Shown piece after piece: positions 2,882-26,366 of a stretch of DNA of 64,000 nucleotides. The position numbers and the translations under genes were made by a program. Under the pieces are notes generated by a model. It saw only the letters and a program-made list of their open reading frames with translations. It did no database searches and was not told the DNA's origin. The DNA comes from Longimicrobiales bacterium (GTDB lineage: Bacteria > Gemmatimonadota > Gemmatimonadetes > Longimicrobiales > Gaopeijiaceae). The stretch lies in NCBI GenBank assembly GCA_963422615.1, contig OY730414.1, positions 1,346,302-1,410,301 on the forward strand, in the 5' to 3' direction. Each line of letters starts with the position of its first letter. Positions within the stretch are counted from its first letter, which is position 1.

Positions 2882-3170
2882 GAGGCGATGGATCCGTTCT
2901 GACCCGGGAGGTCCCAAGGGCGGGCACGGTGGATAAGGGGGGGATGCGGAGAATTGACCGGATTCACCGCACCCATGAAGATAAAGCATGTGGGGGCCAG
3001 CCAACTTAAGTTCGCCCCGCCCTCGGACTCGGAGTATCTGCTATGAAGTCCTTCGGAGCATCATCCATCGTCAGGTCTTCCGCTTCGCGTTGGAACCCGA
3101 CGGAGGCCGGCGCTTTCGTGGCGGGCCTCACCCAGCCCCCGCTTCCAACCGCGACAGCAAGGGGCGTGCG

Positions 3171-6011
3171 GTGAGCAACATCCCCGGCGGGGATCGCCGA
3201 TGGCCGTACCCCGGCGCCCGTTGGTGGAAGTTCGACTTTCACACCCATACCCCGGCCTCGAACGACTACGGCAAGGGATCCGAGCAGGAGACCCTGCGAA
3301 ACGTTACACCGCGCGATTGGTTGCTCGGTTTTATGGGCGCCGAAGTGGATTGCGTAGCGGTGACGGACCACAACTCGGGGGAGTGGATCGACAAGCTCAA
3401 AGCGACCCTCGTGGAGATGGAGGAGGAGAACCATCCGGACTTTCGGCCCCTGTACTTATTCCCAGGCATGGAAATCACCGCCAACGGCGGCATCCATGTC
3501 CTTGCGATATTCGACCCCGGCAAAGGATCCGCGGATATTGCAACGCTGCTCGGAGCCGTTGGATATCGAGGCGACCGCGGTGCCAGTGACGAAGTGGCGG
3601 ATTCGGCGCCCAAAGGTGTCGTGAAAGCCATCGGCGAAGCCGGCGGAATCCCTATTCTCGCCCATGTGGATGGTCCGTCAGGCGCCTGGAAGTTGCCCGG
3701 CAATACCCTGACGCCGCTGTTCGATCTCGACGATCTTTTCGCGATGGAGGTGGTCGATCCTGCGAAAGAGAAACCCGAGCTGTATCGTCAACGCAAGCTC
3801 GCCTGGGCGGAAGTGCTTGGCTCCGACTCGCATCATCCCGGCGGACCGGCAGGGTCTCGTTTCCCCGGCTCGCACTACACCTGGATCAAGATGGCGGAAC
3901 CCTCGCTGGAAGGACTGCGCTTGGCCTTGCTGGACGGCGGAGGCTTCTCGGTCCGGCGCAGCGACGATCCGGAGCCTTTCAATCCCTTTGCGCTGCCCAC
4001 GCATCGCATCGAAGCCATCGAGATTGACGACGCGCGGTACATGGGGCGCGGTAAGCCGGCCAGTCTTGGGTTCAGCCCGTGGCTCAACGCCCTGGTGGGC
4101 GGGCGAGGCACAGGCAAGTCCACGGTCATCCATGCACTGCGGCTGGCGGCGAGACGCGAGAATGAATTGGCGAATCTGGAAGCACGCAGCGAGCCTCGTC
4201 TGACCTTCGAGCGATTCAATCGCGTGCCCTCGCATCGCACGGACGAGGGTGGCTTGCAGGGTTCGACGAAAATTCGGTGTACCATGATGCGCGACGGCGT
4301 TCGTCATCGCCTTCGCTGGCGGCAGGACGGCGTCGGCACGGTCGTGGAAGACGATGCGGGCAACGGCGATTGGAAACCCTCACTTGCTCAGACGGTGACG
4401 CCGGAGCGTTTTCCGGTCCGCATATTCAGCCAGGGACAGATCGCCGCCCTGGCCGGCGAGAACCAGCAGGCGCTGTTGCAGGTGATCGACGAGGCGGCCA
4501 AGACAAGCAGGCTGCATGAAGACCTCAAAGAGGCCCGAAAAGCATTCTTCGCATCAAGGACGCGGATCCGGGCGCTCGACGGCAAGCTGGGCCGATGGGA
4601 CGATCTCGTCGTGCAGCGACAGGATACGGAGCGCAAGTTGAAGCGTTTCCAGGATGCAGGACACTCCATGATCCTGACCGCTTACGGGCGCCGTCGCCGT
4701 CAGCGTACGGAAACGGATCGGCAGCTCGAGGCATCGGAGGAGATCGCCGATCGCATTGAAGCGCTGGCGGCAGGACTTGAAGCCGAAGACCTGCCTGATG
4801 GACTGTTCGACGAAGGATCGGAAGAAGATCGGCAAGCGGTTTCGATCATGGCAGCGCTGGCCGCCGGCGTGCGCATGGCAGCCCGGGACCTGCGTTACGC
4901 CGCCAAGCGCCTGCGAGGAATTGCCGAAGCACAGCGCAAGGAGTTGACCAATAGCATGTGGCAGTCAGCCGTGGAACAGGCGACGCAGGGCTACACTGCG
5001 TTGGTCGAGACGCTGCGCAGTGTAGGCATTACCGACCCGAACGAGTACGGCCGCTTGGTACAGGACCGGCAACGGCTCGATAGGGAATCGAAGGCTCTGG
5101 AGTCACTGCAGGCGGAACGGGATCGGCTGACGGAGCAATCCGGGGGACAACTGCGGAAGGTCCTGGAGGCCCGCCGCGCCATAAGCGCCGCCCGCGAGAA
5201 TTTCCTGTCCGGAACGCTCGCCCGGAACCGCTTCGTGCGCATCCGACTTCGGACCTACGGCGACGGTCCGCGAGTCATCGAACGTTCCTTGCGGGAGGCG
5301 TTGAGGATTCTTGACGACCGCTTCCGGGACGACATCCTCGTGATGGACGTGGATCGCCCGGCCAATGGGTGGGTTGCGGAACTTCTTGCAGACTTGCCGG
5401 AAGGTACAACAGAACGGTGCTCCGAGGTCGAAAGCCGCATCGAGCACCTCAAACAGCGAATCAGCCGGGCCTGTTCAGGCAGCGGTGATTTCGGCGGACG
5501 CCTCAACAACTATTTCCAGCGTGAATTCAACCGGCATCCCGAGCTGCTGGACAACATGCTGACCTGGTTTCCAGAAGACGGATTATGGGTCGAGTACAGC
5601 CGCCGGGGCGACGGCACGGACTTTCAGCCTATCAATCAAGCGTCGGCGGGTCAGCGGTCGGCGGCAATGCTGGCGTTTCTGCTTGCGCACGGCGAGGAGC
5701 CTCTGGTACTAGATCAGCCGGAAGACGATCTCGACAACCACTTGATCTACGACCTGGTCGTGCGCCAGATGCGGGAGAACAAGCTCAGGCGGCAGATCAT
5801 CGTGGTGACGCACAACCCGAACATCGTCGTGAACGGAGATGCCGAGATGCTGCATGCACTCGGTTTCCAGCGAGGCCAGTGTCGGGTCGTGCAGTCGGGA
5901 TCGTTGCAGGAAGAAACGATGCGCGAGGAAGTCTGCCGGGTGATGGAAGGTGGACGCGAAGCCTTCGAGCGCCGTTATCGTCGCTTGGGGCGGGAGCCGG
6001 CTCGTGTTTGA
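3171..6011 (+). CDS. PHP-domain phosphoesterase fused to SMC/Rad50-like ABC ATPase (Ppl-like defence protein); maximal ORF starts at ATG 2988
   Basis: PHP motifs WWKFDFHTHTPAS, AVTDHNS, PGMEIT, GSDSHHP. Walker A LVGGRGTGKST, Q-loop FSQGQ, signature-like QASAGQRS, Walker B LVLDQPEDDLD, H-loop VVTHNPN, with a ~300-aa helical insert between Walker A and signature (Rad50/SbcC-like). GTG 3171 is in frame and preceded by AAGGGG. The 61 aa upstream of it (from ATG 2988) are low-complexity. Confidence 0.8.
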   Translation: MSNIPGGDRRWPYPGARWWKFDFHTHTPASNDYGKGSEQETLRNVTPRDWLLGFMGAEVDCVAVTDHNSGEWIDKLKATLVEMEEENHPDFRPLYLFPGMEITANGGIHVLAIFDPGKGSADIATLLGAVGYRGDRGASDEVADSAPKGVVKAIGEAGGIPILAHVDGPSGAWKLPGNTLTPLFDLDDLFAMEVVDPAKEKPELYRQRKLAWAEVLGSDSHHPGGPAGSRFPGSHYTWIKMAEPSLEGLRLALLDGGGFSVRRSDDPEPFNPFALPTHRIEAIEIDDARYMGRGKPASLGFSPWLNALVGGRGTGKSTVIHALRLAARRENELANLEARSEPRLTFERFNRVPSHRTDEGGLQGSTKIRCTMMRDGVRHRLRWRQDGVGTVVEDDAGNGDWKPSLAQTVTPERFPVRIFSQGQIAALAGENQQALLQVIDEAAKTSRLHEDLKEARKAFFASRTRIRALDGKLGRWDDLVVQRQDTERKLKRFQDAGHSMILTAYGRRRRQRTETDRQLEASEEIADRIEALAAGLEAEDLPDGLFDEGSEEDRQAVSIMAALAAGVRMAARDLRYAAKRLRGIAEAQRKELTNSMWQSAVEQATQGYTALVETLRSVGITDPNEYGRLVQDRQRLDRESKALESLQAERDRLTEQSGGQLRKVLEARRAISAARENFLSGTLARNRFVRIRLRTYGDGPRVIERSLREALRILDDRFRDDILVMDVDRPANGWVAELLADLPEGTTERCSEVESRIEHLKQRISRACSGSGDFGGRLNNYFQREFNRHPELLDNMLTWFPEDGLWVEYSRRGDGTDFQPINQASAGQRSAAMLAFLLAHGEEPLVLDQPEDDLDNHLIYDLVVRQMRENKLRRQIIVVTHNPNIVVNGDAEMLHALGFQRGQCRVVQSGSLQEETMREEVCRVMEGGREAFERRYRRLGREPARV

Positions 6012-7281
6012 CAGCGTCGAGGAACTGCTCGACAAGATAAGACTCGGCGAAGACACGTTCCTGGAGTGCAAGGAAGTACGTTTTGCGGGACAGAAGGTCA
6101 GCGGCCCTCGCCGTGATTCGCTCGCGGACGAGCTCGCCGCCTTCGCCAACGGCCGAGGCGGTGTCTGCCTGCTGGGCGTGGAAGACGGCTCGCGTGAAAT
6201 CGTAGGCATCCCCGTTGACCGTCTCGATGTCGTGGAAGATTTCGTCCGTGAAGGTTGCAGCGATTCCGTGGATCCGCCTCTCGCGCCCGTGATCGAACGC
6301 ATCCAGCTACCTGCGACCACCGGGGAAGAGGTTGCGATCATCAAGATCGAGGTGAAACGCAGTCTGTTCGTACACCGCAGTCCGGGAGGCTATCTGCACC
6401 GGGTAGGCAGCGCCAAGCGCACCATGTCGTCCGAATACCTGGCCCGGCTGTTCCAGCAGCGCAGCCAGGCCCGGATGATCCGCTTCGACGAACAGGTTGT
6501 TCCCGACGCCAAGCCGGACGATCTGTCATCCGAGATCTGGAGGTCTTTTCGCACCCCGCTCACCAGGAATAAATCGGAAAGTCTGCTTGCAAAACTTCAT
6601 ATGGTGCGACCCGATATGGACGGTACGCCGAGGCCGACGGTGGCAGGTGTGCTCATGGCCTCTCCGGATGCCCGGAGATGGCTGCCCAATGCCTACATTC
6701 AGGCAGTCGCCTATCGCGGCACGACCGTCAGAGCCGATACCAGCGATCCCTACCAATTGGATGCCTCGGATATCTCCGGCCCATTGAACAATCAAGTGAT
6801 TCAAGCCTGCCAATTCGTGGCGAAGAACATGAAAGTGGCGGCATTCAAGCATCTAGGCCGCCTGGATCGACCACAGTTCGACATGGAGGCGGTGTTCGAG
6901 GCTGTAGTCAATGCCGTGGCCCACCGCGACTACTCGATCCATGGCTCGAAGATCAGGTTGAAGCTGTTCCGCAACCGTCTTGAAATCTACTCACCCGGTG
7001 CCATCTCCAACACGATGGGAGTGGAAGATCTGCCCCACCTGCAGGCCACTCGAAACGAGATCGTTACCAGTCTGCTCGCCAAGTGCCCCGTCCCGACGAA
7101 CGTACCGTGGCTGGAGACCGAGCGGCGCACCATGATGGACAGACGTGGCGATGGGGTGCCGGTGATCTTGAACAACAGCCTGGAACTGTCGGGGAGAGAA
7201 CCGGAGTATCGTTTGATCGGCGACGCCGAACTGCTGTTGACCATCTATGCGCCCCGAGATGCATCGGAGGAATTGACCTAG
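6004..7281 (+). CDS. AlbA_2 DNA-binding domain + HATPase_c_4 protein (divergent-AAA / Schlafen-like, often annotated RecG-like regulator)
   Basis: GTG 6004 overlaps the stop of the upstream gene (GTGTTTGA) with GGGAG 8 nt upstream. The N-domain VFDSVEELLDKIRLGEDTFLECKEV...ELAAFANGRGGVCLLGVEDG is typical of AlbA_2. The C-terminal region AVFEAVVNAVAHRDYS is typical of HATPase_c_4. The maximal ORF from ATG 5950 overlaps the upstream gene by 60 nt. Confidence 0.7.
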   Translation: MFDSVEELLDKIRLGEDTFLECKEVRFAGQKVSGPRRDSLADELAAFANGRGGVCLLGVEDGSREIVGIPVDRLDVVEDFVREGCSDSVDPPLAPVIERIQLPATTGEEVAIIKIEVKRSLFVHRSPGGYLHRVGSAKRTMSSEYLARLFQQRSQARMIRFDEQVVPDAKPDDLSSEIWRSFRTPLTRNKSESLLAKLHMVRPDMDGTPRPTVAGVLMASPDARRWLPNAYIQAVAYRGTTVRADTSDPYQLDASDISGPLNNQVIQACQFVAKNMKVAAFKHLGRLDRPQFDMEAVFEAVVNAVAHRDYSIHGSKIRLKLFRNRLEIYSPGAISNTMGVEDLPHLQATRNEIVTSLLAKCPVPTNVPWLETERRTMMDRRGDGVPVILNNSLELSGREPEYRLIGDAELLLTIYAPRDASEELT

Positions 7282-7329
7282 GCCGCTTCCGACTTGGCCG
7301 TCGGCGCATCCCGGCCTGCTGGTGGCGGG

Positions 7330-9615
7330 TCATGCCGCTTTTTGGTATGAGGACCCGTTCCGGTCGGTTCGAAGCTGGCCGCTCCTTCTCGGATGGATTC
7401 CGACGAAAAAGAACCAAGAGAACCGCTCGTAGCGAGTGTATATGGCCATGCCGGGGCCGATGGCGGCCTGGGCCAAGTCCACCGGCGCGATGCCGCCGGA
7501 CCGGAGGATGCGCAGGGCCGGGGGGAGTTCGGTACGGAGCGTTTCCAGGAACTCCCGGCGGGTGGCCAGGGGCAGGTCTTCGGCTCGCTTTCGGCAGGCC
7601 AGGACGATGCTGGAGGCGAGGGCGTTGGTGCCCATGCCCACCATCCGGTTGGTCAGCTCGGTCCGCATCGGCCAGGTGCCGTTTATGGCGAGTCCCGATT
7701 CGATGACGGCGCCCAGGAAGGTCTCCCAGCCCGTGGAGGCGGTTCCGGATTTTCTTCTTGTTTCGGACTGCTTGAAGGCGTAGTAGATGGTGACCGGGAA
7801 CCCCGGGTGGGCCTGCTCCGCAAGCCGCTCGAGAGCCCGGGTCATTCCGCTCAGGAAGAAGCGTTCCGCCGCCTGTTTGCTGCCGTGTCGGTAGGGCGTG
7901 GCGACCAGCTCATCGGCCTTGGGCACAGCAAGCGTGGCGAACAGGTCCGGGAACATCGGCCGCAGGGAGCGGCGCAGCCAGACGTAGAAGAAGTCCGACA
8001 GGTCCGCGTAGCCGATGTTGTCGTAATAGGGCGGGTCGGTGGAGATGACTTCGGGACCGGCCGCCGCCTGGCTCGTTGCGTCAATCTGTGTCGCCATGCC
8101 GGCTGGGCCGCGAGGAAACGCGCCCAGGGCCTTTGCCGCCAATGCGATCTGGCCGGTCCAGTTGCCGCTTGATCCGGAAAATGGGTTGGCTTCCGCAAAA
8201 TCCCACATCATCGGAATAGCCTGCCTGCCAAACGTGTTTCGAATTGCCTCTCCCGGGACATTCCAGCTACAGATGCTTGACCAGTGGTTGGCACACTTGT
8301 CGACTGCGAACGCCAGATACAGGGACACCGCCTGGGCATAGGCCGTCGCGCCCCTGCCACCGTCGCGCAGCGGCTTGCCGTCGTCAGGGAAGCCGGTGGC
8401 GACAGCGTCTCGGCGGATCCGCTCTCGCGCTTCCCCCACCAGATCGGAAAAGGTCGTCAGGGCAACCAGCTGGCGGGGCGTGAAGAGGTCGGCGAAAGCG
8501 GGAAGACCGTAGTTGGGAGTCTTGAAGTCTCGCGGATTGTCGGGCAACGGTATGTCCGGCTTCCAAGTCGGATTCGCTTGGCGAGCGATCGTCTCATGCT
8601 CCGCCGACGGTGACAGATACACCCTTCCCCGAACTCCCGCCGCCACCACTGCCATCAACCGCGCACTCATGCGCCCAGCTTTGCCTTCCCCTCGAATGTG
8701 CTCGTACGGCAGACCCACTCCTGACATGAGGCAGCGAAACGCGCGTCGTTTGCCGGCTGATGTCCCCCGTTTCGCCGCGTCCACATCCGGCGGCGTTCCC
8801 ACCTTCACCGTGAACCGGTATCCCTTCCCCTCGATCACCGGCTCGACGTACGCCTCCTTCCCCTTCTTCGTCGACAGCATCCACGTCGACGCCAGCGGCA
8901 CCTCCACATCCCCATACGCAGGGTTCGGACTCTTCACCGTCCGCGCCCACAACCACGCGATCACCGTCAGCTTCCGCCCCGCATACGGCTTCAGGTCCGG
9001 CCGCTCCCGCACCATCTCCGGCGTCACCTCGACCGGCGGATACAAATGCCCGATCCGCTTCGCCGCCTCCTCCCGCATCCAACCCCCGTACCGCCGCACG
9101 TCCTCCGCCAACCCCTGCGCCCCGGACCACGTCTTCTCAACCAGCGTCGCGTCCGCGCGCGCCTCCGAGTTCACCGGCCCCCGACCCGCAAACCTCGGCG
9201 GTACCTCGATCATCGCCTTGCAGATCAGCACCGCTACCGGATTCAGATCGCTCGCGTGCGACTCCAGCCCCAGCCGCTGTGCCTCCAACGGCAGCGCCCC
9301 ACCCCCCGCAAATGGATCGTGAAAAGCAGGCAACTTCTCGGAATCAAACAACTCCCTGGCCCTGGGATGATCCCCGTTCTCGGCACACGCCCGCCCCCAA
9401 CTCCGCCAGATCTCACTCCTAGCCTCTTCAAGCACCCTCTCGTTGTTCGTGTTCTCCCACCTCACCAACTCCTCAATCATCCGAAACAACCGCCCCCGCT
9501 CACGCCCTGCGGCGATCTTCCGCAGGAAACTCCCTCTCGTCTTCGCCGGCTTCATCCACCATCTGGCGTCACCTTGACCGGGCGGCGGCCAGCGGACGAT
9601 CCGTGCCCACCACAA
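7330..9615 (-). pseudogene. DUF1156-family N6-adenine DNA methyltransferase, partial inverted copy A (N-terminal domain decayed at 9620-9750; C-terminus truncated at repeat boundary ~7426)
   Basis: 761-aa ORF with MTase motif I DPFAGGG and motif [23 protein letters not shown]. It lacks the DUF1156 N-terminal [15 protein letters not shown] segment. Only a decayed remnant with a stop (RKKLIEV..., [16 protein letters not shown]) survives at 9620-9750. It diverges from copy B after ...AIYTRYE and so lacks the ~190-aa conserved C-terminus. Confidence 0.7.
7426..9590. repeat. Left arm of ~2.15-kb inverted repeat (DUF1156 gene body)
   Basis: Six-frame ORFs 8513-9322(+) and 12536-13345(-) are identical over 269 aa, and 8594-9130(-) equals 12728-13264(+) over 178 aa. 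9046-9675(+) and 11976-12812(-) are identical for ~150 aa. The outer part 7426-8500 matches 13350-14431 with scattered substitutions and indels. Confidence 0.9.
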
Positions 9616-10067
9616 GTGGAGTGTGCTCGGATGCCCAGTGCCGGATCGACTTCTCTCGCTTTGACGCCGCGTTGATCTACGACCTAGCGGAAGCCCGAGA
9701 CCTCAATCAGCTTCTTGCGTATCTGAACGGTAGTCACCTATGATGTTCACCCAGATGGATGGCCTTGAGATGCGGCCGGCCCGACGCAACATCGCATGGA
9801 ACTACGACTAGGCCCCATTCTGGCTTGGCCACTGGGAAGTGCGCAATCCTGGTTCATTTCGGGTAGAGCAGTGCGCATTCCCGGGGGCATGAGCGTCTGG
9901 CGGCGCCGTCGGCCGTCCTTGCCGATCTCCTCCACCGCTACAGGGCGGAGCAGATAAGGCGCCTCTGGTATTTCCGGATCGGATTCTTCCGCCTTGGATC
10001 ACACCGGGCGACGCGTTATGGGGTTCCGGACCTCCCGATTCCCCCTGCCCTCCAGAGGAGAAGTACG

Positions 10068-10970
10068 ATGTCCAATGGTTCCCTTGAAGGAAGGAAAGCC
10101 AACCGTAAGCCGGTGCTTTTGGAAACTGCTGGCCAAGAGGTATTCACCCGGCATGGGCAGCGTCTGGAAACCCAGCACGTTAACTGTAAACCGCCGGATA
10201 TCTTCAGGCAACATCAGATTCGGGCCCTCGGACCTTTCGCGGCCGACCCATTGAACGAGATCACGAGAGGAGAGGTTCGGCAGTGGTTCGGAACGCTGCA
10301 CCGAACACCGGCCGCGGGCAATCGCTCCCTTCCCGTTCTTTCCGTAATCTTGAGGGAGGCCGAGGCCTATGGATACCGGTCGGCCGAAAGCAATCCCTGT
10401 CGTCCACTTCGGCGGTACCGGGAGGTTGGGCGCAAGCGCTTTCTCAATGCGACAGAGATAAGGCGCCTAGGCAGAGTGCTTGCCGACCGACGGACCGCAT
10501 GGCCCCTTCAGGCGACACTTGTTCGTCTATTGCTGCTCACCGGCTGTCGGCAGAGCGAAGTGCGAACGCTCGAGTGGCACAACTATCGCGACGGACACCT
10601 ACATTTGCGCGACAGCAAAACGGGTCCACGGACGATTTGGCTGTCGTCAGCTGCACGGCGGGAACTGGGGGAACTGTCCCGAACGGGGCGCTTCGTGTTC
10701 CCTGCGCCGGATGGTGCAAGTCCCATGCCGACGGAAACGCTCTACCGCGCCTGGCGGCACCTGCGCCATGACGCGGGAATGCCCGGACTCCGGCTGCATG
10801 ACCTCCGGCACACGTACGCGAGTCTGGCCCTGCGTCGTGGGGAGACGGTGGTCGTGATCGGTCGGCTGCTGGGACACCGGGATCCGAACACCACACTCAA
10901 GTATACGCACTTTGGCTCGACGATCCTGCAGGAGGCCGCAGAAATCGTTACCCAAGCCTTGAAAGGGTGA
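10068..10970 (+). CDS. Tyrosine recombinase / phage-integrase family (XerC/D-like), intact
   Basis: Box I LLLTGCRQSEV, HDLRHTYASLA, and LLGHRDPNTTLKYTH with the catalytic Tyr. A GAGGAG RBS lies 7 nt upstream of the ATG. Confidence 0.85.
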   Translation: MSNGSLEGRKANRKPVLLETAGQEVFTRHGQRLETQHVNCKPPDIFRQHQIRALGPFAADPLNEITRGEVRQWFGTLHRTPAAGNRSLPVLSVILREAEAYGYRSAESNPCRPLRRYREVGRKRFLNATEIRRLGRVLADRRTAWPLQATLVRLLLLTGCRQSEVRTLEWHNYRDGHLHLRDSKTGPRTIWLSSAARRELGELSRTGRFVFPAPDGASPMPTETLYRAWRHLRHDAGMPGLRLHDLRHTYASLALRRGETVVVIGRLLGHRDPNTTLKYTHFGSTILQEAAEIVTQALKG

Positions 10971-10974
10971 CGCC

Positions 10975-11899
10975 ATGGCTCCGAACTTTGCCCGATTCGT
11001 TACGAACCCCTGGAGAACCGCCTGCTACAACCGATGCAAGCCTTCGACCCGAAAGCGCATGGACAGCGCGCTTCGCACCCAGCTTCTTCCCGTCTTTGGA
11101 TCTTTGCGTCTGGACGAAATCAACCGGGTGGCCGTGCTCCGGTGGTTCGACGGATACAGCCGAACCGCGCCGGCGGGTGCGAACCGTACCCTGGACATCC
11201 TGCGGCAGATCCTCAACTACGGCATCGAGTGTGGCCATTTGGAATCGAACCCGGCCTGCGGTGTAAAACGCAATCCCAGGCCGAAGGTCACTCGTTTTCT
11301 CTCGAAAGACGAAGTGGCCCGTGTCCACGCAACCATTGACGCCCACCGGGGCCGCGGCTCCCGGTCGCCAAGCAAGCCGACATCATTCGCCTGTTGCTGT
11401 GGACGGATGCCGCAAGGGCGAAATCCTGAATCTGCAGTGGAAGGAAGTGGACGGCAGCGTACTGCGTTTGACCGACAGCAAGACGGGACCCAGAACCGTC
11501 CTTCTTGAGCAAGGAGGCGCAAGCCGTACTTGGCCGCCAGCCGCCTAGCGAAGGTCCCTACGTCTTCCCATCCCTTCTTGATCGTCGCGTCCCGTTCAAG
11601 CGAGCTTTCCCTATGGCGAAAGGTCCGACGCGAAGCCCGAATCCAAGATGTTCGGCGGTGCACACCTCCGGCATACGTTCGCCAGCTACGCCGCCCATGT
11701 GCCGGTGAATCCCGCTGGCCCGTCGTTTGCAGAAAGCTCGGCTTACGGTTGGCCGCCTTCCTTCATGGCCCTACGCTATATTCACATTGATGATCGGGGG
11801 CCAAAGAAGCCGCAGAGCGGATTGGCAGGGACATCGCCGAGCTACTGGACCCGAATGCGGAAGAATCGCGATTCCGGAACGCATCAACAAGGCGCCTAG
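10975..11899 (+). pseudogene. Second tyrosine recombinase (paralog of 10068-10970) disrupted by at least 3 frameshifts
   Basis: The N-domain (VLRWFDGYSRTAPAGANRTLDILRQILNYG) is in ORF 10975-11508. Box I CRKGEILNLQW...LTDSKTGPRTVLL is in the frame of 11321-11548. GPYVFPS is in 11505-11708. HLRHTFASYAA is in 11648-11899. Confidence 0.75.
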
Positions 11900-11961
11900 G
11901 CTCCGCGCCTGTATCTGTCGGTGACCCAAGGTAGATCGGCAAGGACGTCGACGAGCCGACG

Positions 11962-14900
11962 GTGGCGCCAGACGCTCATACCCACCCCTGCTTAAACGAA
12001 ATGAACCAGGATAAATCACCCGGTGAAAACACGCAAGAAGCTGATCGAAGTCGCACTGCCCAGTGGATTCCAATCAATGTAGCGGGGGCGCTAGAGAAGT
12101 CGATTCGGCACGGGCACCCGTCAACGTTGCACCTGTGGTGGTCACGCAAGCCACTGGCCGTAGCCCGGGCGGTAATTTTCGCCCAGGTCGTAGATGACCC
12201 GTCCGAGTACGTCAACGCGTTACTGTCGGACCCGGTGACGCTTCGGGAAGCCCAACGGATACTCGTCCGCAGCGCCGAACGGTCAAGGGACGCCAGGCGG
12301 CGTATGCAAGCCGGGAAGACGAGAGGGAGGCCCTGCGGGAGATCGCCGCCGAGCGTGAGCGGGGGCGGTTGTTTCGGATGATTGAGGAGTTGGTGAGGTG
12401 GGAGAACACGAACAACGAGAGGGTGCTTGAAGAGGCTAGGAGTGAGATCTGGCGGAGTTGGGGGCGGGCGTGTGCCGAGAACGGGGATCATCCCAGGGCC
12501 AGGGAGTTGTTTGATTCCGAGAAGTTGCCTGCTTTTCACGATCCATTTGCGGGGGGTGGGGCGCTGCCGTTGGAGGCACAGCGGCTGGGGCTGGAGTCGC
12601 ACGCGAGCGATCTGAATCCGGTAGCGGTGCTGATCTGCAAGGCGATGATCGAGGTACCGCCGAGGTTTGCGGGTCGGGGGCCGGTGAACTCGGAGGCGCG
12701 CGCGGACGCGACGCTGGTTGAGAAGACGTGGTCCGGGGCGCAGGGGTTGGCGGAGGACGTGCGGCGGTACGGGGGTTGGATGCGGGAGGAGGCGGCGAAG
12801 CGGATCGGGCATTTGTATCCGCCGGTCGAGGTGACGCCGGAGATGGTGCGGGAGCGGCCGGACCTGAAGCCGTATGCGGGGCGGAAGCTGACGGTGATCG
12901 CGTGGTTGTGGGCGCGGACGGTGAAGAGTCCGAACCCTGCGTATGGGGATGTGGAGGTGCCGCTGGCGTCGACGTGGATGCTGTCGACGAAGAAGGGGAA
13001 GGAGGCGTACGTCGAGCCGGTGATCGAGGGGAAGGGATACCGGTTCACGGTGAAGGTGGGAACGCCGCCGGATGTGGACGCGGCGAAACGGGGGACATCA
13101 GCCGGCAAACGACGCGCGTTTCGCTGCCTCATGTCAGGAGTGGGTCTGCCGTACGAGCACATTCGAGGGGAAGGCAAAGCTGGGCGCATGAGTGCGCGGT
13201 TGATGGCAGTGGTGGCGGCGGGAGTTCGGGGAAGGGTGTATCTGTCACCGTCGGCGGAGCATGAGACGATCGCTCGCCAAGCGAATCCGACTTGGAAGCC
13301 GGACATACCGTTGCCCGACAATCCGCGAGACTTCAAGACTCCCAACTACGGTCTTCCCGCTTTCGCCGACCTCTTCACGCCCCGCCAGCTGGTTGCCCTG
13401 ACGACCTTTTCCGATCTGGTGGGGGAAGCGCGAGAGCGGATCCGCCGAGACGCTGTCGCCACCGGCTTCCCTGACGACGGCAAGCCGCTGCGCGACGGTG
13501 GCAGGGGCGCGACGGCCTATGCCCAGGCGGTGTCCCTGTATCTGGCGTTCGCATTGACAAGTGTGCGGATCACTGGTCAAGCATCTGTTCGTGGGATGTC
13601 GGGCTACGTCAAGATTCGAAACACGTTTGGCAGGCAGGCTATTCCGATGATGTGGGATTTTGCGGAAGCCAACCCATTTTCCGGATCGAGCGGCAACTGG
13701 ACCGGCCAGGTCGCATGGGTCGCAAAGGCCCTGGGCGCGTTCCCTCGCGGCCCAGCCGGCATGGCGACACAGATTGACGCAACGAGCCAGGCGGCGGCCG
13801 GTCCCGAAGTCATCTCCACCGACCCACCCTACTACGACAACATCGGCTACGCGGACCTGTCGGACTTCTTCTACGTCTGGCTGCGCCGCTCCCTGCGGCC
13901 GATGTTCCCGACCTGTTCGCCACGCTTGCTGTGCCCAAGGCCGATGAGCTGGTCGCCACGCCCTACCGCCACGGCAGCAAACAGGCGGCGGAGCGCTTCT
14001 TCCTGAGCGGAATGACCCGGGCGCTGGCTCGACTTGCGGAGCAATCCCACCCGGCCTTCCCGGTTACCATCTACTACGCCTTCAAGCAGTCCGAAACAAG
14101 AAGAAAATCCGGAACCGCCTCCACGGGCTGGGAGACCTTCCTGGGCGCCGTCATCGAATCGGGACTCGCCATAAACGGCACCTGGCCGATGCGGACCGAG
14201 CTGACCAACCGGATGGTGGGCATGGGCACCAACGCCCTCGCCTCCAGCATCGTCCTGGCCTGCCGAAAGCGAGCCGAAGACCTGCCCCTGGCGACCCGCC
14301 GGGAGTTCCTGGAGACCCTCCGCACCGAACTCCCCCCGGCCCTGCGCATCCTCCGGTCCGGCGGCATCGCACCGGTGGACTTGGCCCAGGCCGCCATCGG
14401 CCCCGGCATGGCCATATACACTCGCTACGAGAAGGTGCTCGACGCCAGTGGGAAGCCGATGACGGTTCGCGAAGCCCTGGCGCTCATCAACCAGATCCTC
14501 GACGAGTCGCTGGCGGAGCAGGAAGGGGAATTCGACCGAGCCACCCGCTGGGCACTTGCCTGGTTCGAGGAACACGGCTTCGAGGAAGGAGATTTCGGCG
14601 GGGCCGAAACGCTTTCGAAAGCCAAGAACACCAGTATCGCCGGACTGGTAAAAGTCGGCATCCTGGCGTCCCGTGCCGGCCGAGTCCGTCTGCTGCGCCC
14701 TTCCGAGTTGCCCGACGACTGGGACCCGTCTGCTACCGACCCGCCGACCGTCTGGGAAGTGGTTCACCAGCTCATCCGAGCGCTGGAAAGCGAGGGCGAA
14801 ATGGCTGCGGCAAAACTTGTCGAACGCCTAGGCAGCGTCATCGGTAACGCCCGTGACCTCGCGTACCGCCTCTACTCCATCTCAGACCGAAAGAAGAGGG

Positions 14901-15001
14901 CCGCGGAAGCCCTGCAGTACAACGGCTTGGCCGGGAGCTGGACCGAGATCAAGAACCAGGCCGCAAAAGCTCAGCAGACCGAATTCGAGATGGATTCGTG
15001 A
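11962..15001 (+). pseudogene. DUF1156-family N6-adenine DNA methyltransferase copy B; complete N- and C-termini but frameshifted near 12060, 13560-13620 (two compensating indels) and ~13905
   Basis: ORFs 11962-12381 ([46 protein letters not shown]), 12369-14006 and 13931-15001 together cover the full DUF1156 length including the conserved C-terminus (...YNGLAGSWTEIKN). Relative to copy A, a 1-nt deletion (cccggacctg to cccgacctg) shifts the frame after [13 protein letters not shown]. Confidence 0.7.
12310..14431. repeat. Right arm of the ~2.15-kb inverted repeat
   Basis: Reverse complement of 7426-9590; the central >1 kb is 100% identical. Confidence 0.9.
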
Positions 15002-15156
15002 ACAGTACTGCCCGCAACCGCCCAAACGGTCGGGCTGGCAAGACTTGTCAGCCTGATGGATGAGGGCGCGTTCACCGAGCTTTCAGGCGATACTTGACGG
15101 CATTGACCGCCTTGGCTCGTCCCCTTCACCCGCCAACCAAGACTGACTGACCCAAT

Positions 15157-18100
15157 ATGGCTCTAACCAATCATGAACGCGTCGGGAAGGCGATGGCGCT
15201 TCTCCGCGCCGGCCTGGCCCCCTTCGTCGAGCGCGAAATCAAGGCCGCCCACCCCCCTGCCGTCACCCCGGCCCGCGAGGCCTACCGGTACCTGAACGAC
15301 CGCAAGATCACGGCCGAGCCGATCCCGGAGTGGGACGTCCACGCGTTGCTTCGGCTCATGTGGGAGGCATGGAACCGAGTCTTCGGGAAGACGCTGGGCA
15401 GCGCCGAGCGCAACTACGTTTCCGAACTCCGCGCCGCCCGGAATGCTTGGGCCCACCAGCGGAGCTTCACCAGTGACGACGCCCACCGCGCCCTTGATTC
15501 CACATACCGGCTGCTGACCTCGATCTCGGCGCCTCAGGCTGCGGACGTTGAGAAGATGAAGATGGAGCTCCTCCGGCTTCGCTTCAATGAACAGGCCCGC
15601 CACGTGCGGCGCCAGGGTGCTCAGACGGCGCTCAAGATCGGGGCCACGTCTTCCTTGCCCGCCTGGCGGGACGTGGTGTCGCCCCACCCGGATGTCCAGC
15701 GCGGCGACTACAAGCAGGCCGAGTTCGCGGCCGACCTCTGGCAGGTCTACAAGAACGACGCCTCGGACGAATACCGTGATCCGGCCGAGTTCTTCCGGCG
15801 CACCTACCTGACCGAGAGCTTGCGCGCCATGCTGGTGGGCGCGGTGACGCGGCTCACCTCGGGCCGGGGTGACCCGGTCATTCAGCTCCAGACCAACTTC
15901 GGCGGAGGCAAGACCCACTCTATGCTCGCCCTGTACCACCTGTTTTCGGGTACCCCGCCCACGCGTCTGGCTGGGGTGGACGCGCTCATGGGGGAAGCCC
16001 GGGTCGATGGACTTCCACGGGTTCGCCGGGTCGTCCTGGTCGGCACCAAGATCTCGCCCGCCAGTCCCCAAAAAAAGCCGGACGGCACGGTCGTTCGCAC
16101 CCTGTGGGGAGAACTCGCCTGGCAGCTGGGCGGCCGGGATGCCTACCGTAGGATCGCCGACGACGACGAGAAGGGCACCAGTCCGGGCGATGCCCTCCGG
16201 GGCCTGTTCAACGACTTCGGGCCGTGCGTGGTGCTCATTGACGAATGGGTGGCCTACGCCCGGCAGCTTCACGATCGCAGCGACCTTCCCGCCGGCAGCT
16301 TCGAGACGCAGTTCACGTTTGCCCAGACGCTGACCGAATCCGTAAAGGCCGCGTCCAACTGCCTGCTCGTGATCAGCCTTCCTGCATCCGATGCGGCGCC
16401 CTCTCCCCAGACGCAGGCGGACGACGTCGAAGTCGGCGGAGTTCGCGGCCGGGAAGCGCTGGACCGGCTGAGCAACGTCGTGGGCCGGCTGGAGTCCGCC
16501 TGGCATCCCGCGAGCGCGGAGGAGGGCTTCGCGATCGTCCGGCGACGCCTCTTCACGTCCATGGACGATGAGGGCCAAAAGCAGCGCGACGTCGTTGCGA
16601 GGACATTCTTCGACTTCTACCGAAGGCAACAACAGGAATTCCCGGTCGAGTGCCGCGACTCCGACTACGAGCGCCGGCTGAAGGAGGCGTACCCGATCCA
16701 CCCCGAGGTCTTCGATCGGCTCTACGAGGACTGGTCCACGCTTCTGAGATTCCAGCGCACGCGCGGCGTTTTGCGCCTGATGGCCACCATCATCCACAGC
16801 CTCTGGGAGAAGGGGGACCGGAGTCCTTTGATCCTCCCGTCCCTGGTGCCGATCGACGACCGGCGGGTCCGCTCCGAGCTCACGAGCTACCTGCCGGACC
16901 GATGGGTGCCGATCATCGAGTCGGACGTGGACGGCCCCAACTCCCTTCCGCTTCGTATAGACAAGCAGTACAGCAACCTGGGCAAACTGACCGCCTGTCG
17001 CCGCGTGGCCCGGACGGTGTACTTGGGCTCCGCGCCGCTGAAGGATGCGGCCAAGAAGGGCATGGACGACCGCCGCGTGAAGCTGGGTTGCGTGTTGCCC
17101 GGGGAGTCGGCCGCGATCTTCGGGGACGCGCTGCGTCGGCTGGCCGGGGAAGCGACGTACCTGTACCAGGACGGCCCCCGCGTCTGGTATGACACACAAC
17201 CCACCGTGACCAAGCTCGCGCGGGACCGGGCCGCGCAGCTGGAAGGCGCTCCCGCCAGGGTTTCCGAGGAGATCAAGCGCCGCGTGCAGGCGGATGCCAG
17301 CCGAAACCGAGGGGACTTCCACGGCGTCCACTGCTTCCCCCGGGAGGCGGCGGATGTTCCCGACCACCCCAGTGTCCGTTTGGTGATCCTGGGCGTAGAC
17401 GAGAGCTACATCAAGAGTGGCGAAAGCCCCGCCGAAGCTCGGGCCCGGGAACTGCTGGAGTCCCGAGGGACTGCTCCCCGTCTCTGCCGCAACGCGGTCG
17501 TGTTCCTGGCGCCCGACAAGACCCGGTTCCAGGATCTTGCGGCAACGGTCCGGATGTACCTCGCGTGGCAATCGATCGTCGCCGAAAAAGAATCCCTGAA
17601 CCTCGACCCCTTCCAGCTTAGGCAGGCCGAGAGCCGTCTTGACGACCAGGATGGCAGGGTGAAGGGCCAGATCCCGGAGGTCTTCCAGTGGCTTCTGGTG
17701 CCAGGTCAGGTCAAGCCCGAGTCCCCGGTAGAGTGGAAGGCGGTTCGCCTGACGGGACCGGGTGAGTTGGTGGTTCGGGCGAGCGCAAAGCTGAGGCGGG
17801 AGGACATGCTGGTCGACTGTTACGCGGGCACCCTTCTCAAGCTGGATCTCGACCGTATTCCTCTGTGGCAGGATCATGTGGAGGTACGGCAGCTGGCAGA
17901 CCACTATTCGAAGTACACCTACCTCCAGCGGGTCGGAGATCCTTCGGTCATCGCCAATGCCGTGCGGGAGGGAGTCGGCCTGTTGACCTGGGAGAACGAC
18001 ACGTTTGCCTACGCTGAGGGTTACGACGAAGAGAAGGGGCGGTACCTGGGGCTTAGGGCGGGGACCCATCTGCCGCCTTTGAGCCCGGAGGACAGGGGAT

Positions 18101-18486
18101 TGGTGGTCCGTTCCGCGATTGCTCGGGAGCAGCTGGACAAAGAGGTCGTGGGTCCGCCCCCGCCCCCCGAGAACGGCGTCGATACGGATTCCCGGCCACC
18201 ATCCTCCCCGGACGACAGTGAAGGGCCGTCCCTCCCTCCCCCCCTCCGGCCAAAGAAGCGCTTCTACGGGAACGTGGCCGTCGACCCGGTCCGGTCCGCA
18301 GGGGCCGTAGGACAGATTGCAGAGGAGGTGGTGTCGCATCTGGTTGCCTTGGTTGGCGCAAAAGTGGATGTGACCCTGGAGATCGAGGCCAAGATCCCGG
18401 ATGGCGCGCCGGAGCACGTCGTGCGGACTGTCACCGAGAATGCCCGAACGTTGGGATTCGGGAGTTTCGATTTCGAGGAGGAATAG
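15157..18486 (+). CDS. DUF499-family P-loop ATPase with N-terminal Swt1-like HEPN domain (partner of the DUF1156 methyltransferase)
   Basis: HEPN Rx4H motif LRAARNAWAHQ near the N-terminus. P-loop QTNFGGGKTHSMLALYHL and Walker B CVVLIDEWVAY. 1109-aa ORF. The antisense 1084-aa ORF 15163-18417 is a GC artefact. Confidence 0.85.
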   Translation: MALTNHERVGKAMALLRAGLAPFVEREIKAAHPPAVTPAREAYRYLNDRKITAEPIPEWDVHALLRLMWEAWNRVFGKTLGSAERNYVSELRAARNAWAHQRSFTSDDAHRALDSTYRLLTSISAPQAADVEKMKMELLRLRFNEQARHVRRQGAQTALKIGATSSLPAWRDVVSPHPDVQRGDYKQAEFAADLWQVYKNDASDEYRDPAEFFRRTYLTESLRAMLVGAVTRLTSGRGDPVIQLQTNFGGGKTHSMLALYHLFSGTPPTRLAGVDALMGEARVDGLPRVRRVVLVGTKISPASPQKKPDGTVVRTLWGELAWQLGGRDAYRRIADDDEKGTSPGDALRGLFNDFGPCVVLIDEWVAYARQLHDRSDLPAGSFETQFTFAQTLTESVKAASNCLLVISLPASDAAPSPQTQADDVEVGGVRGREALDRLSNVVGRLESAWHPASAEEGFAIVRRRLFTSMDDEGQKQRDVVARTFFDFYRRQQQEFPVECRDSDYERRLKEAYPIHPEVFDRLYEDWSTLLRFQRTRGVLRLMATIIHSLWEKGDRSPLILPSLVPIDDRRVRSELTSYLPDRWVPIIESDVDGPNSLPLRIDKQYSNLGKLTACRRVARTVYLGSAPLKDAAKKGMDDRRVKLGCVLPGESAAIFGDALRRLAGEATYLYQDGPRVWYDTQPTVTKLARDRAAQLEGAPARVSEEIKRRVQADASRNRGDFHGVHCFPREAADVPDHPSVRLVILGVDESYIKSGESPAEARARELLESRGTAPRLCRNAVVFLAPDKTRFQDLAATVRMYLAWQSIVAEKESLNLDPFQLRQAESRLDDQDGRVKGQIPEVFQWLLVPGQVKPESPVEWKAVRLTGPGELVVRASAKLRREDMLVDCYAGTLLKLDLDRIPLWQDHVEVRQLADHYSKYTYLQRVGDPSVIANAVREGVGLLTWENDTFAYAEGYDEEKGRYLGLRAGTHLPPLSPEDRGLVVRSAIAREQLDKEVVGPPPPPENGVDTDSRPPSSPDDSEGPSLPPPLRPKKRFYGNVAVDPVRSAGAVGQIAEEVVSHLVALVGAKVDVTLEIEAKIPDGAPEHVVRTVTENARTLGFGSFDFEEE

Positions 18487-23191: not shown

Positions 23192-24318
23192 CGGTCTTGA
23201 CGACTTCGGCCGACGGCGGCCCGGCGCTTTCTCGCATAGGAGATCCGGTGGAAGAACCGGGGGGGATCTTCGACCGGATGGCCCGGGCCAACCACAATCA
23301 GCTCGTGTTTTGGAGCGACCGGGAATCAGGCTACCGGGGTATCATCGCCGTCCACGACACGACCTTGGGACCGGCCTTGGGCGGGACCCGATTCTGGTCC
23401 TACCCGACCGAAGAAGCCGCGATCGTCGACGCCCTGCGCCTTTCGGAGGGGATGACCTACAAGGCCGCCATTACGGGCCTGGGACTGGGCGGGGGAAAGT
23501 CGGTCATCATTGGTAACAACCGGATCCGCGACCGGGAGCCGATCTTCCGCGCCCACGGGAGGGCCGTGGATGCCCTGAAGGGTCGCTACATTGCCGCCGA
23601 GGACGTGGGAACATCTGTTCAGGACATGGAGTTCGTTCGCATGGAAACGAACCATGTCGTGGGGCTGCTGGGCCGGTCCGGGGACCCTTCACCGGTCACC
23701 GCCTACGGCGTATACGTGGGAATTCGCGCGTGCATCCTGGAGCGCTTCGGGGATGACACCGTGGAAGGCAAGCATGTGGCCGTCCAGGGGCTGGGAAATG
23801 TAGGACGGAACTTGTGCGAGTACCTGGCCCGCTCCGGGGCGCGGATCACCGTCACCGACATCTGGCCGGACCGGGTCCGGAAGGTGATTTCCCGCATTCC
23901 AAATGCCTCCCCGGTGGCGCCCGGAGAGATTTACGCAGTGGACGCCGATGTCTTCGCTCCCTGTGCTCTTGGGGGCGTGATCAACGACGACACCCTGGAC
24001 CTACTGAAGGCGGGGATTATCGCCGGAGCGGCCAACAACCAGCTCGCTCAGGCCCACCACGGGGACCGAGTGCACGAACGCAACATTCTTTATGCACCGG
24101 ACTACGTCATCAATGCGGGGGGCCTTATCAACGTCTTCGGGGAGTTGCAGGGATGGGACGCGGGACGCGGCAAGCGGGAAGCCGGGGGCATCCATGACAC
24201 GCTTTTGCACATCTTCAAGCGTTCCCGGCACGAGAACCTCCCCACGAGCCGAGCCGCCGACCAGATCGCCCGGGCCCGGGTTCAGGAGGCAAAGGGATCC
24301 GGAAACGGACAGGCGTGA
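23188..24318 (+). CDS. Glu/Leu/Phe/Val-family amino-acid dehydrogenase (leucine dehydrogenase-like)
   Basis: GGTRFWSY...GLGLGGGKSVI and the NAD-binding VAVQGLGNVGRNL. ATG overlaps the upstream stop (ATGA) with an AGGAGGA RBS. Confidence 0.85.
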   Translation: MTVLTTSADGGPALSRIGDPVEEPGGIFDRMARANHNQLVFWSDRESGYRGIIAVHDTTLGPALGGTRFWSYPTEEAAIVDALRLSEGMTYKAAITGLGLGGGKSVIIGNNRIRDREPIFRAHGRAVDALKGRYIAAEDVGTSVQDMEFVRMETNHVVGLLGRSGDPSPVTAYGVYVGIRACILERFGDDTVEGKHVAVQGLGNVGRNLCEYLARSGARITVTDIWPDRVRKVISRIPNASPVAPGEIYAVDADVFAPCALGGVINDDTLDLLKAGIIAGAANNQLAQAHHGDRVHERNILYAPDYVINAGGLINVFGELQGWDAGRGKREAGGIHDTLLHIFKRSRHENLPTSRAADQIARARVQEAKGSGNGQA

Positions 24319-24359
24319 TCTTCGTCGCCGCTTTGAAGCGGTGAGAAACGGGGAGTCGG

Positions 24360-25631
24360 ATGGAACACGTGCGGAAACAGGACGAGGGGGTCTACCGAGC
24401 CGTGGCGGAAGAGGCGGCCCGCCAGCGTAACCAGCTCGAGATGATCGCCAGCGAAAACTTCGTCTCGCCCGCCGTGCGGGAGGCCCTGGGAACGGTCTTC
24501 ACCCACAAGTATGCCGAGGGGCTTCCGGGGCGGCGCTACTACGGGGGTTGCGAGTTCGTGGACCGGGTGGAGGAGATGGCTCGCTCCCGGTCGGTGGAGC
24601 TCTTTGGCGTCGGCCATGCCAATGTGCAGCCCCACTCCGGGACCCAGGCCAACATGGCGGGGTACTTCGCGTTCCTGAAGCCCGGAGACAGGATTCTGAG
24701 CATGAAGCTGACCCACGGCGGCCACCTGACCCACGGGTCACCGGTCAACTTCAGCGGGCGCCTGTACGACGTCACCAGCTACGGGGTCCGGGAGTCCGAC
24801 GGGCGGATCGACTACGACGCGCTCCGGGACTTGGCCCGGCGGGCGCAGCCCAAGCTGATTGTGGCCGGAGCGTCGGCCTACCCCCGGATCATCGACTTCG
24901 AAGCCTTTGGGCAGATCGCCCGGGAGACGGGGGCCTACCTGCTCGTCGACTTGGCTCACATCGCGGGCTTGGTCGTGGGTGGCCACCACCCGAGCCCGGT
25001 TCCCTACGCCGACGTCGTCACCACGACCACCCACAAGACGTTGCGGGGCCCCCGGGGCGGACTCGTCATGTGCCGGAAAGAGCACGCCGGGACGATCGAC
25101 AAGATGGTTTTTCCCGGCATTCAGGGCGGACCCCTCATGCACGTCATCGCGGCCAAGGCCGTGGCTCTGGGCGAGGCCCTCTCCCCGAGCTTTCGAGATT
25201 ACGGAAGGAGGGTGGTGGAAAACGCCCGGACCTTGGCGTCGACGGTCATGGAGCGAGGGGTTCGGCTGGTTTCGGGCGGTACGGACACGCACCTGATCCT
25301 GGTTGATCTTCAGACCCGGGCGCTCACCGGGAAGGATGCGGAGCAGGCCTTGGAAGCTGCCGGAATCACGGTCAACAAGAATACGGTTCCCGGTGAAACC
25401 CGCTCACCCTTTGTTACTTCGGGGTTGCGCATCGGCACCCCCGCCTTGACCAGCCGGGGCATGGGCACGGACGAGATGCGGCTCATTGGGGGCTGGATTT
25501 CCGACGTTCTGGAACACCCCGAAGATCTGTCTGCAATCCACCGAATCCGGGGCGAAGTTACAGAGTTGTGCGCTTCGTTCCCGCTGTTTGCCGAATTGGC
25601 GCAACCGGATGAGGCGTGCAACATTGCATGA
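24360..25631 (+). CDS. glyA: Serine hydroxymethyltransferase
   Basis: [43 protein letters not shown]...[13 protein letters not shown]. Confidence 0.95.
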
Positions 25632-26013
25632 CATGAACGACATCAGCTCCAGCAAGGGTGTCATGGACACCCTGAAGAAACGGCATCCGCGCTTTCATCC
25701 TTGCGCGTATCTGTTTCTCCTTGACGCCCTGGAGATGGTTCTGGCCGAATTGGCAGAACGGCGCCATGTCTCCGGCCCCGAGTTGGCGGAGGGAGTCCGA
25801 ACCCTGGCTATCGCCCGTTTCGGCCCCATGGCCCGTACGGTCTTGGCGTACTGGGGCATCTGTTCGACGGAAGACCTGGGCGAAGTCGTTTTTGCCCTGG
25901 TCAACGCCGGGGTTCTCGTCAAGCGCAAGGAAGATCGGCTGGAAGATTTCGAGAAGCTCTTCGACTTCGAAGAGGTCTTCGAGCGGAACTATCCCTGGAC
26001 GGTGGCGCTGTAG
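25609..26013 (+). CDS. Hypothetical conserved protein (alternative start ATG 25633)
   Basis: Protein-like 125-135-aa ORF (…[18 protein letters not shown]…[21 protein letters not shown]…) that immediately follows glyA. Confidence 0.5.
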
Positions 26014-26169
26014 GTCCTGGCAGAATCCGCGCCTTCCTGATACTTTCCCGCCGCGAAGACACGTAACGGAGACCGTCGGCCGAAGCGCCAGCGCCGGGTC
26101 CCGGCCTGACGAGAAGGTGGCCTGGTCCGGTCCCTTCGGTCGACTACTTGGCGAGGGGTTGATGACACG

Positions 26170-26364
26170 ATGGAAGAGGCTGGATTTGCCACCTGCATGA
26201 AGTGTAATGAGGGTGTTCTCCTGCCCATGTCCGATTACGGGCGGGACGGGGCGCCCATCCGCTACAAGGCGTGGGTTTGTTCGAATCCGGACTGCGGATT
26301 CAACATTCGCATCGACAACGGCGAAATCTCCTTCGGCCGGTCAATCGGGCAAAGCTTCAAGTAG
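26170..26364 (+). CDS. Small zinc-ribbon protein (64 aa)
   Basis: CxxC...CxxC arrangement (CMKCNEG...CSNPDCGF). It ends 3 nt before the nnr ATG. Confidence 0.45.
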   Translation: MEEAGFATCMKCNEGVLLPMSDYGRDGAPIRYKAWVCSNPDCGFNIRIDNGEISFGRSIGQSFK

Positions 26365-26366
26365 CT

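Follow-up and report, generated by a model that had tools for sequence, protein, structure and literature searches.

Programmed DNA inversions that vary a methylase have been described in several defence systems, namely in pglX of type 1 bacteriophage exclusion (BREX) systems (Lacticaseibacillus rhamnosus and Brevibacterium casei), in DrmMI of defence island system associated with restriction–modification (DISARM) loci and in Type IIG methylases (PMC9881135). In Streptococcus pneumoniae, the hsdS genes of a Type I system are inverted by the tyrosine recombinase PsrA (PMC4948785, PMC7096588), and the outcome is a change in methylation specificity together with heterogeneity in the population. 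Here we describe a related locus in a stretch of 64,000 nucleotides (nt) from a Longimicrobiales bacterium (assembly GCA_963422615.1, contig OY730414.1, positions 1,346,302 to 1,410,301); this whole stretch is called the window below. By its gene content, the locus is an Hma (Type-1 BREX-related) defence system with hmaA, two cargo genes, hmaB and hmaC, in which hmaB, the DUF1156-family methylase gene, occurs as two inverted copies, A (minus strand) and B (plus strand). In the assembly, a full-length DUF1156/HmaB protein is encoded by neither of them. A preliminary description of the stretch had stated as much, which the translations of A and B bear out, and had gone on to propose that the two copies carry complementary lesions. 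Our analysis points elsewhere. The locus is probably an undescribed member of the known class of programmed-inversion switches, and the apparent complementarity of the lesions is most likely due to a problem with the local assembly.

The locus resembles the pglX, DrmMI and Type IIG arrangements in combining an N6-adenine methylase gene, a partial inverted copy of it and an adjacent site-specific recombinase gene, and in that the specificity-bearing part would be exchanged while another part stays fixed. It differs from them in the methylase family, here DUF1156/HmaB, and in having two tandem tyrosine recombinases rather than one. The silent copy is also organised differently. The usual layout in PMC9881135 is a silent copy that lacks its 5′ end, whereas in the present locus it is the 3′ end that the silent copy lacks, its own start being retained; a 5′ part of ~800 amino acids (aa), start codons included, would move onto a fixed 3′ part. 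With hsdS the locus shares a tyrosine recombinase, inverted repeats inside the coding sequence and silent partial copies. However, hsdS inversion shuffles half-target-recognition domains of a separate specificity subunit while the 5′ end and promoter stay in place, whereas here whole N-terminal modules of the methylase would be swapped. The specificity change and population heterogeneity documented for hsdS are outcomes that might be expected here by analogy.

The system was named Hma in PMC8565338 and is alternatively called the Type-1 BREX-related system. Like the canonical members (PMC8565338, PMC11232893, PMC12839542), ours has three genes, an hmaC fused to a HEPN domain and inserted cargo. 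A HEPN–DUF499 fusion is described for Type-1 BREX-related systems (PMC12839542), and Septu, PARIS or Ppl genes are inserted within the hma loci of Halomonas (PMC11232893), where the Ppl cargo matches that found here. Unlike the canonical members, the locus has a second, inverted hmaB copy and would undergo inversion, neither of which is mentioned in the searchable published descriptions. We found no description of inversion in a DUF1156/Hma system; DUF1156 is absent from the text of PMC9881135, supplementary tables aside, and the survey of BREX-related systems in PMC12839542 contains none of the terms "invert," "recombinase" and "phase varia."

The two hmaB copies form a long inverted repeat around the recombinase genes Int1 and Int2 (Table 1). 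Copy B as a whole extends from a GTG start at 12023 to 15001. The long open reading frame (ORF) of copy A (7330–9615, 761 aa) ends in a short unrelated tail at 7330–7425. The overall repeat arms, 7426–9570 and 12290–14431, contain a central tract in which the copies are identical, two pairs of segments that are 97% identical (7948–8244/13614–13910 and 7426–7950/13907–14431), a short patch that differs, and 5′ ends that diverge more (74–84% identity). Homology between A and B ends at B residue ~803, and A thus lacks the last ~190 aa. The copies are identical over aa 111–511 and 97% identical thereafter, the main difference being a 20-aa patch. Across the 97% arms there are 16 synonymous and 9 non-synonymous differences between A and B; the ratio of non-synonymous to synonymous substitution rates (dN/dS) of ~0.19 indicates that both copies evolved as coding sequence until very recently. 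Both retain the motifs DPFAGGG and DPPYYDN, and PADLOC identifies HmaB in the copy A ORF (E=0) and in the C-terminal ORF of copy B (3.8e-152). Methylation by HmaB and an anti-phage function of the system are predicted from family membership.

Table 1. Coordinates, within the window, of the Hma genes, the hmaB modules and the elements of the proposed switch.
Feature	Position	Strand	Evidence or remark
hmaA, Swi2/Snf2 helicase	~2881 to 1, off window start	-	tblastn vs L005 HmaA; frameshift-aware alignment
Ppl-like ATPase, cargo defence gene, intact	2988-6011	+	PADLOC Ppl 9.9e-131; Pfam AAA_21/SMC_N
Schlafen/AlbA_2 + HATPase_c_4 protein, second cargo gene, intact	6004-7281	+	Pfam
Putative recombination site, outer repeat end of A (...GGCATGGCCATATACACTCGCTACGAG)	7426-7457		A-B homology stops here
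Copy A / module A	homology 7426-9570, remnant up to ~9737	-	putative alternative N-terminal ~765-aa HmaB module, silent copy
60-nt patch differing between copies	8245-8304 / 13554-13613		holds the compensated -1/+1 pair of B; variable among homologues too
100% identical arms, 1222 nt	8305-9526 / 12332-13553		lesion-free in both copies
Int1, tyrosine recombinase, ORF open	10068-10970	+	Pfam PF00589 4.3e-17
Int2, second tandem tyrosine recombinase	10975 to ~11934	+	Pfam Phage_int_M/SAM_3 on N-terminal ORF; homologous to L029 Int2
Module B, N-terminal ~803 aa of HmaB, now joined to the fixed C-terminal part	12023-14431	+	
Putative recombination site, outer repeat end of B	14400-14431		
Fixed HmaB C-terminal ~190 aa, outside inverted repeat	14432-15001	+	PADLOC HmaB profile positions 611-960; lesion-free
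hmaC, HEPN_Swt1 fused to DUF499 AAA+ ATPase, 1109 aa, intact	15157-18486	+	Pfam, PADLOC

This layout recurs. Among 79 related HmaB loci from species-representative genomes (given L numbers here), 11, from several phyla, have a second, inverted HmaB copy with one or more recombinase genes between the copies, and 10 of those 11 have the same Int1–Int2 pair. The lineages concerned are as distant as Acidobacteriota, Spirochaetia and Gemmatimonadetes. In eight of the 11 loci, as in the window, homology between the copies ends directly after the ...GPGMAxYTR(Y/H) codons; in L004 it extends some ten codons further, and in L018 and L033 the second copy reaches the C-terminus. Directly before the stop point lie 25–150 identical nt, even where the neighbouring DNA is only 71–77% identical. 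Relative to the fixed C-terminal part, and comparing different genomes, the module–Int1–Int2–module cassette of the loci with a truncated partner is in the plus orientation in the window, L005, L022, L023 and L029 and in the minus orientation in L004, L014, L026 and L052. Among relatives, the partial copy forms an uninterrupted ORF with a start of its own (791 aa in L029, 855 aa in L005), A and B are mostly intact ORFs, and Int1 and Int2 are frameshift-free in all 11 related loci that have them. The relatives' two copies share no DNA similarity at aa ~340–590, a stretch that is also variable among homologues and would, in our view, correspond to the published target-recognition insert.

Other arrangements are found in the same set. 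Two full-length or nearly full-length HmaB copies are present in inverted order in L018, L033 and L053 and in direct order in L015 and L045, so the layout with a truncated partner is not the sole one. In L014 (2489–4184), about 1.7 kb of unrelated DNA, perhaps an insertion element, splits the partial HmaB copy. L001 (8726–9178) has an inverted partial copy with only a distant recombinase match between the copies (28% identity to Int1) and no match to the Int2 query; in some lineages the switch may use other recombinases. In L009 (4586–7147), an Int2–Int1 pair lies between an hmaC that matches only residues 1–854 and a single hmaB, with no inverted hmaB copy within the fetched flank; the arrangement may be the remnant of a rearranged switch.

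Taken together, we consider it highly probable that the architecture is that of an inversion switch. Two head-to-head N-terminal modules of ~800 aa, each with a DUF1156 domain, a methylase core and a variable target-recognition region, would flank the tandem recombinase genes. Site-specific inversion at the outer repeat ends (codons for ...GPGMAxYTRY; 7426–7457 and 14400–14431) would then join either module to the fixed C-terminal ~190 aa just upstream of hmaC. The missing C-terminus of copy A would be the normal silent state and not a lesion, because most related loci of this architecture are truncated at the same codon; the preliminary description, which listed the absence of these ~190 aa among the defects of A, was correct as to where homology stops but not as to what this means. 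Its suggestion that copy B plus the DUF499 gene forms a working module, with A as a cassette, is the better supported of its two readings, A being more plausibly an alternative N-terminal module for inversion than a donor for gene conversion.

Could the arrangement be no programmed switch at all, but leftovers of mobile elements or a chance inverted duplication whose copies exchange by ordinary homologous recombination? Integrases near Hma loci (19.1%) have been read as signs of mobility (PMC11232893), and the arms are long enough for RecA-dependent recombination. Yet the same layout, recombinase pair and truncation codon recur across distant lineages, a short stretch at the boundary stays identical even in loci whose arms share only 71–77% identity, and both orientations occur. 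We regard this explanation as very improbable. We discarded the idea that the inverted copy arose by insertion of a mobile element, as such an event would leave direct repeats rather than 2-kb inverted gene copies.

The state of the reading frames is the more difficult question. In copy B, three-frame translations and frameshift-aware alignment to the homologue P0002 reveal five to six insertions or deletions (indels). The reading frame is 1 from the GTG at 12023, 0 after 12061–12072, 2 after ~12316 and 1 again after 13910. The most plausible reading of the change at 12061–12072 is a pair of +1 A insertions, LP[a]VDS[a]INVAG, whose correction yields LPVDSINVAG against LPLDAINAAS in the family. 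At ~12316, B has GCCGG-GAAG where A has GCCGGCGAAG. A compensated −1/+1 pair at 13554/~13600 replaces a 21-aa stretch, and at 13910 one G is missing (CCCGGACC to CCCGACC). Three of these disruptions, near 12060, at 13554/~13600 and at 13910, had been recognised previously; the fourth frame change, at ~12316, had been missed, and the frames only add up (1 to 0 to 2 to 1) when it is included. The lesions had been placed in homopolymer runs, but the runs are only 2–3 bases long. After frame correction, B encodes 992 aa without an in-frame stop, scores 82 bits against PF06634 and is 70–72% identical to full-length homologues of about 1000 aa (700/995 identical to P0002). Both ends of B had been taken as intact, which is true of the lesion-free C-terminal part but not of the N-terminus, with its two +1 A insertions and a Leu at an invariant Arg.

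Copy A is in frame from residue ~106 to ~803. This includes the positions of the B lesions at 13554, ~13600 and 13910, and the earlier statement that A is intact at the central lesions of B agrees with the 761-aa ORF, which is in frame there. The 5′ end of A (9527–9737) is another matter: compared with B, it has seven small indels, and 114 nt are deleted in frame. Four of the indels fall within about 100 nt, and two others make up a compensated pair that puts a TGA in frame. The preliminary description had A lacking a functional N-terminus, and as assembled A is frameshifted there; once corrected, however, this N-terminus is a recognisable DUF1156 domain (PF06634, 65.9 bits) that matches 42 of 46 positions of a consensus drawn from the homologue alignment and, by hand count, about 41 of 45 residues of the homologue P0004.

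Nor are the lesions confined to the methylase copies: Int1 has four, Int2 at least nine and hmaA one. In Int1 they form two compensated pairs (10161/10196 and 10225/10256) that scramble about 30 aa, and the coding sequences of the conserved peptides VWKPSTLTVNR and PRTFRGRPIE lie in another frame. In Int2 the first 130 codons are clean and the frameshifts, at least nine, lie between 11369 and 11800; residues 131–230 are nevertheless 68% identical to L029 Int2 despite five frameshifts, compared with 79% for a control pair. In all, about 25 indels of one or two bases fall within 9527–13910, locally one per 30–50 nt. They are restricted to the diverged 5′ ends, to the spacer's outer parts, up to about 220–650 nt from the arms, to the variable patch and to a single site in a 97% arm. 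No lesion falls in either copy of the 1222-nt tract, in the middle 1.1 kb of the spacer, in the body of A or in the last 1.1 kb of B, nor, outside the switch, in hmaC (3.3 kb) or the Schlafen gene. Four compensated pairs have their partners within about 20–46 nt of each other, and the net lengths of Int1, Int2 and B are each a multiple of three. After correction, in-frame stops number zero in B, zero in Int1, one in A (inside the compensated pair) and one in Int2. The genes for thiolase, enolase, AcrB, YjeF, ThiL and SHMT, among others across the window, are full length. Two further approaches were set aside: mirror symmetry of the Int1 and Int2 lesions about the repeat centre, where the match was only approximate, and a whole-window plot of third-position GC content by frame for hidden frameshifts, which was too noisy.

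We think it rather probable that the indels are artefacts of the assembly consensus, as opposed to evolutionary decay or a system of complementary defects. Those between 9527 and 13910 would be consensus errors in a segment that is heterogeneous in the population, with mixed orientations or mixed strains. Several features favour this origin. The lesions lie only where a molecule of the opposite orientation would differ from the reference; they are clustered, partly compensated and of net lengths that are multiples of three; and conserved motifs are kept in the corrected frames, with few stops despite about 25 indels and a low dN/dS between the copies. The full-length housekeeping genes elsewhere in the window, and a Logan contig that agrees with it completely over 2216 nt, count on the same side. 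In bacteria, point mutations outnumber indels about ten-fold; had neutral decay produced this many indels, one would expect the motifs to be gone and stops to be numerous. The sequencing indels that the preliminary description offered as an alternative are the better supported of its two readings, by the conserved corrected frames, the scarcity of stops and an indel density too high for the substitutions present, although the homopolymer argument then used for them is weak. For the combined reading, a consensus error in a heterogeneous and probably actively inverting segment, we estimate a probability of roughly 60%.

Several observations weigh against this combined reading, and many of them would be accommodated by a serious, if less likely, alternative in which the lesions are real and the Hma system is dead, with a locked and decaying inversion switch. 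Some of the changes are not small indels. Copy B has its Leu where Arg is invariant in 16 aligned homologues, Int2 has one TGA, and the stretch of B at 12169–12282 is missing from A near ~9585, an in-frame deletion of exactly 114 nt (38 codons) that lies between two CGG motifs and takes out a conserved 11-aa helix. The frameshift in hmaA falls beyond the inverted repeat. The window is otherwise clean, which indicates generally good assembly quality, and the related loci, many of them apparently from long-read metagenome-assembled genomes, have intact switches, so inverted repeats do not as a rule garble such assemblies. Furthermore, the difference between modules in the specificity-bearing part that is found in relatives is not found in the window, where the 1222-nt identical tract spans the relatives' variable region; this loss of module diversity fits a degenerating switch, and switching in the window would change little. 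Inversion in these genomes is moreover something that we infer rather than observe directly. Lastly, the clustering of lesions inside Int1 and Int2 is not fully explained by either artefact or decay. No second assembly of the locus came to light in the collection searched, in that nothing matched the corrected B, a 251-aa stretch spanning its lesions, or Int1 plus Int2 at more than 73% identity.

A dead locus would have decayed in two stages, with the recombinases and the 5′ end of A hit first and B and hmaA more recently; the body of A would have been kept clean by gene conversion from B, and hmaC would either not yet have been hit or have been kept for another role. On such a timeline, the rates for B, hmaA and hmaC agree with one another (about 4–5 events in 9 kb). 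What it does not readily accommodate is the character of the damage. One indel per 30–50 nt should be accompanied by far more substitutions and stops, yet the motifs are intact and dN/dS between the copies is ~0.19. Int1 has four lesions in 95 nt and none in its other 800 nt, Int2 has none in the first 390 nt and at least nine in the next 450 nt, and the net lengths of Int1, Int2 and B all remain multiples of three. A process that is real but specific to indels, namely indel-specific mutagenesis or reversible silencing tied to the recombinase module and acting only within the invertible segment, would leave codons conserved as they are here; we give it an even smaller chance than the absence of any switch, but if true, such localised frameshifting would be an undescribed way of shutting down a defence switch.

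Least probable of all, in our judgement, is the proposal that the defects are real and complementary, that is, an on/off switch built from two broken copies in which a double crossover or gene conversion restores the gene. Copy A, unlike B, does keep the frame at 13554, ~13600 and 13910, and the 1222-nt identical tract shows that the arms exchange sequence. However, the lesions of B at 12061–12072 and ~12316 are not repairable from A, with which homology there is 74–78%. At the first of these, identity is only 74% and the counterpart in A is itself frameshifted; at the second, A is correct at the site itself yet carries a +1 of its own some 15 nt off. Because a single inversion only exchanges entire 5′ modules, no recombinant of the assembled sequences is intact. 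The similar damage in both recombinase genes would be unexplained, and the modules and recombinases of relatives are intact, implying that broken copies are not part of the design.

Around the SHMT gene, positions 24264–26479 (2216 nt) agree at 100% identity with a Logan contig from run ERR11641160, which places the same or a very close organism in that sample, and a contig of more than 1 Mb with an identical SHMT protein is indicated. Exact-protein look-ups with HmaC, Int1, Ppl, an S9 peptidase, thiolase and the Schlafen protein returned nothing, and only that with SHMT succeeded; look-ups of ORFs with GTG starts may have missed matches through V as the first residue, and that for thiolase was repeated with M. 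A metagenome scan with a 40-nt pattern at 13910 that allowed either allele also returned nothing.

If the switch is real and active, the Hma/BREX-related systems would join BREX, DISARM, Type I and Type IIG systems among the methylase-based defences that are varied by inversion. The layout would be an unusual one, with 5′ modules that bring their own start codons onto a fixed 3′ part and with two recombinases. Part of the integrase signal near Hma loci (19.1%, PMC11232893) would then reflect switching machinery and not mobility. For the scanning of genomes more generally, a dense cluster of frameshifts that is confined to an invertible segment, with codons conserved, can mark population heterogeneity in an assembly, and such clusters should not be taken for pseudogenisation without reads in hand.

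HmaA is 78% identical to L005 HmaA over residues 87–1010 (tblastn), and L005 HmaA in turn matches PADLOC HmaA with E=0. The gene is cut by the window edge, its C-terminal nuclease part falling outside, and its one frameshift, a +1 G (GG to GGG), lies at ~2737, about 48 codons in. At the other end of the locus, hmaC matches PADLOC HmaC (E=0) and has the Pfam domains HEPN_Swt1 at the N-terminus (1.8e-32) and DUF499 (1.6e-27); alignment with L029 HmaC gives 858 identities in 1112 positions and no frameshifts. A scan of 7200–15300 for promoters and terminators gave nothing above chance.

The Ppl and Schlafen/AlbA_2 genes lie between hmaA and copy A, on the strand opposite to both. Apparent frameshift pairs in the Ppl gene were false positives, their positions shifting with the reference used (34% identity), and the Schlafen gene has zero frameshifts relative to its homologue in L066. 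In L051 and L066 this pair also adjoins Hma genes, and L006 has weaker matches to the two genes, again together, which suggests that the two form a recurrent cargo pair. Farther along the window, at 39052–40755, is a gene whose 567-aa product is rich in ankyrin repeats (Pfam Ank_2, 6.9e-40).

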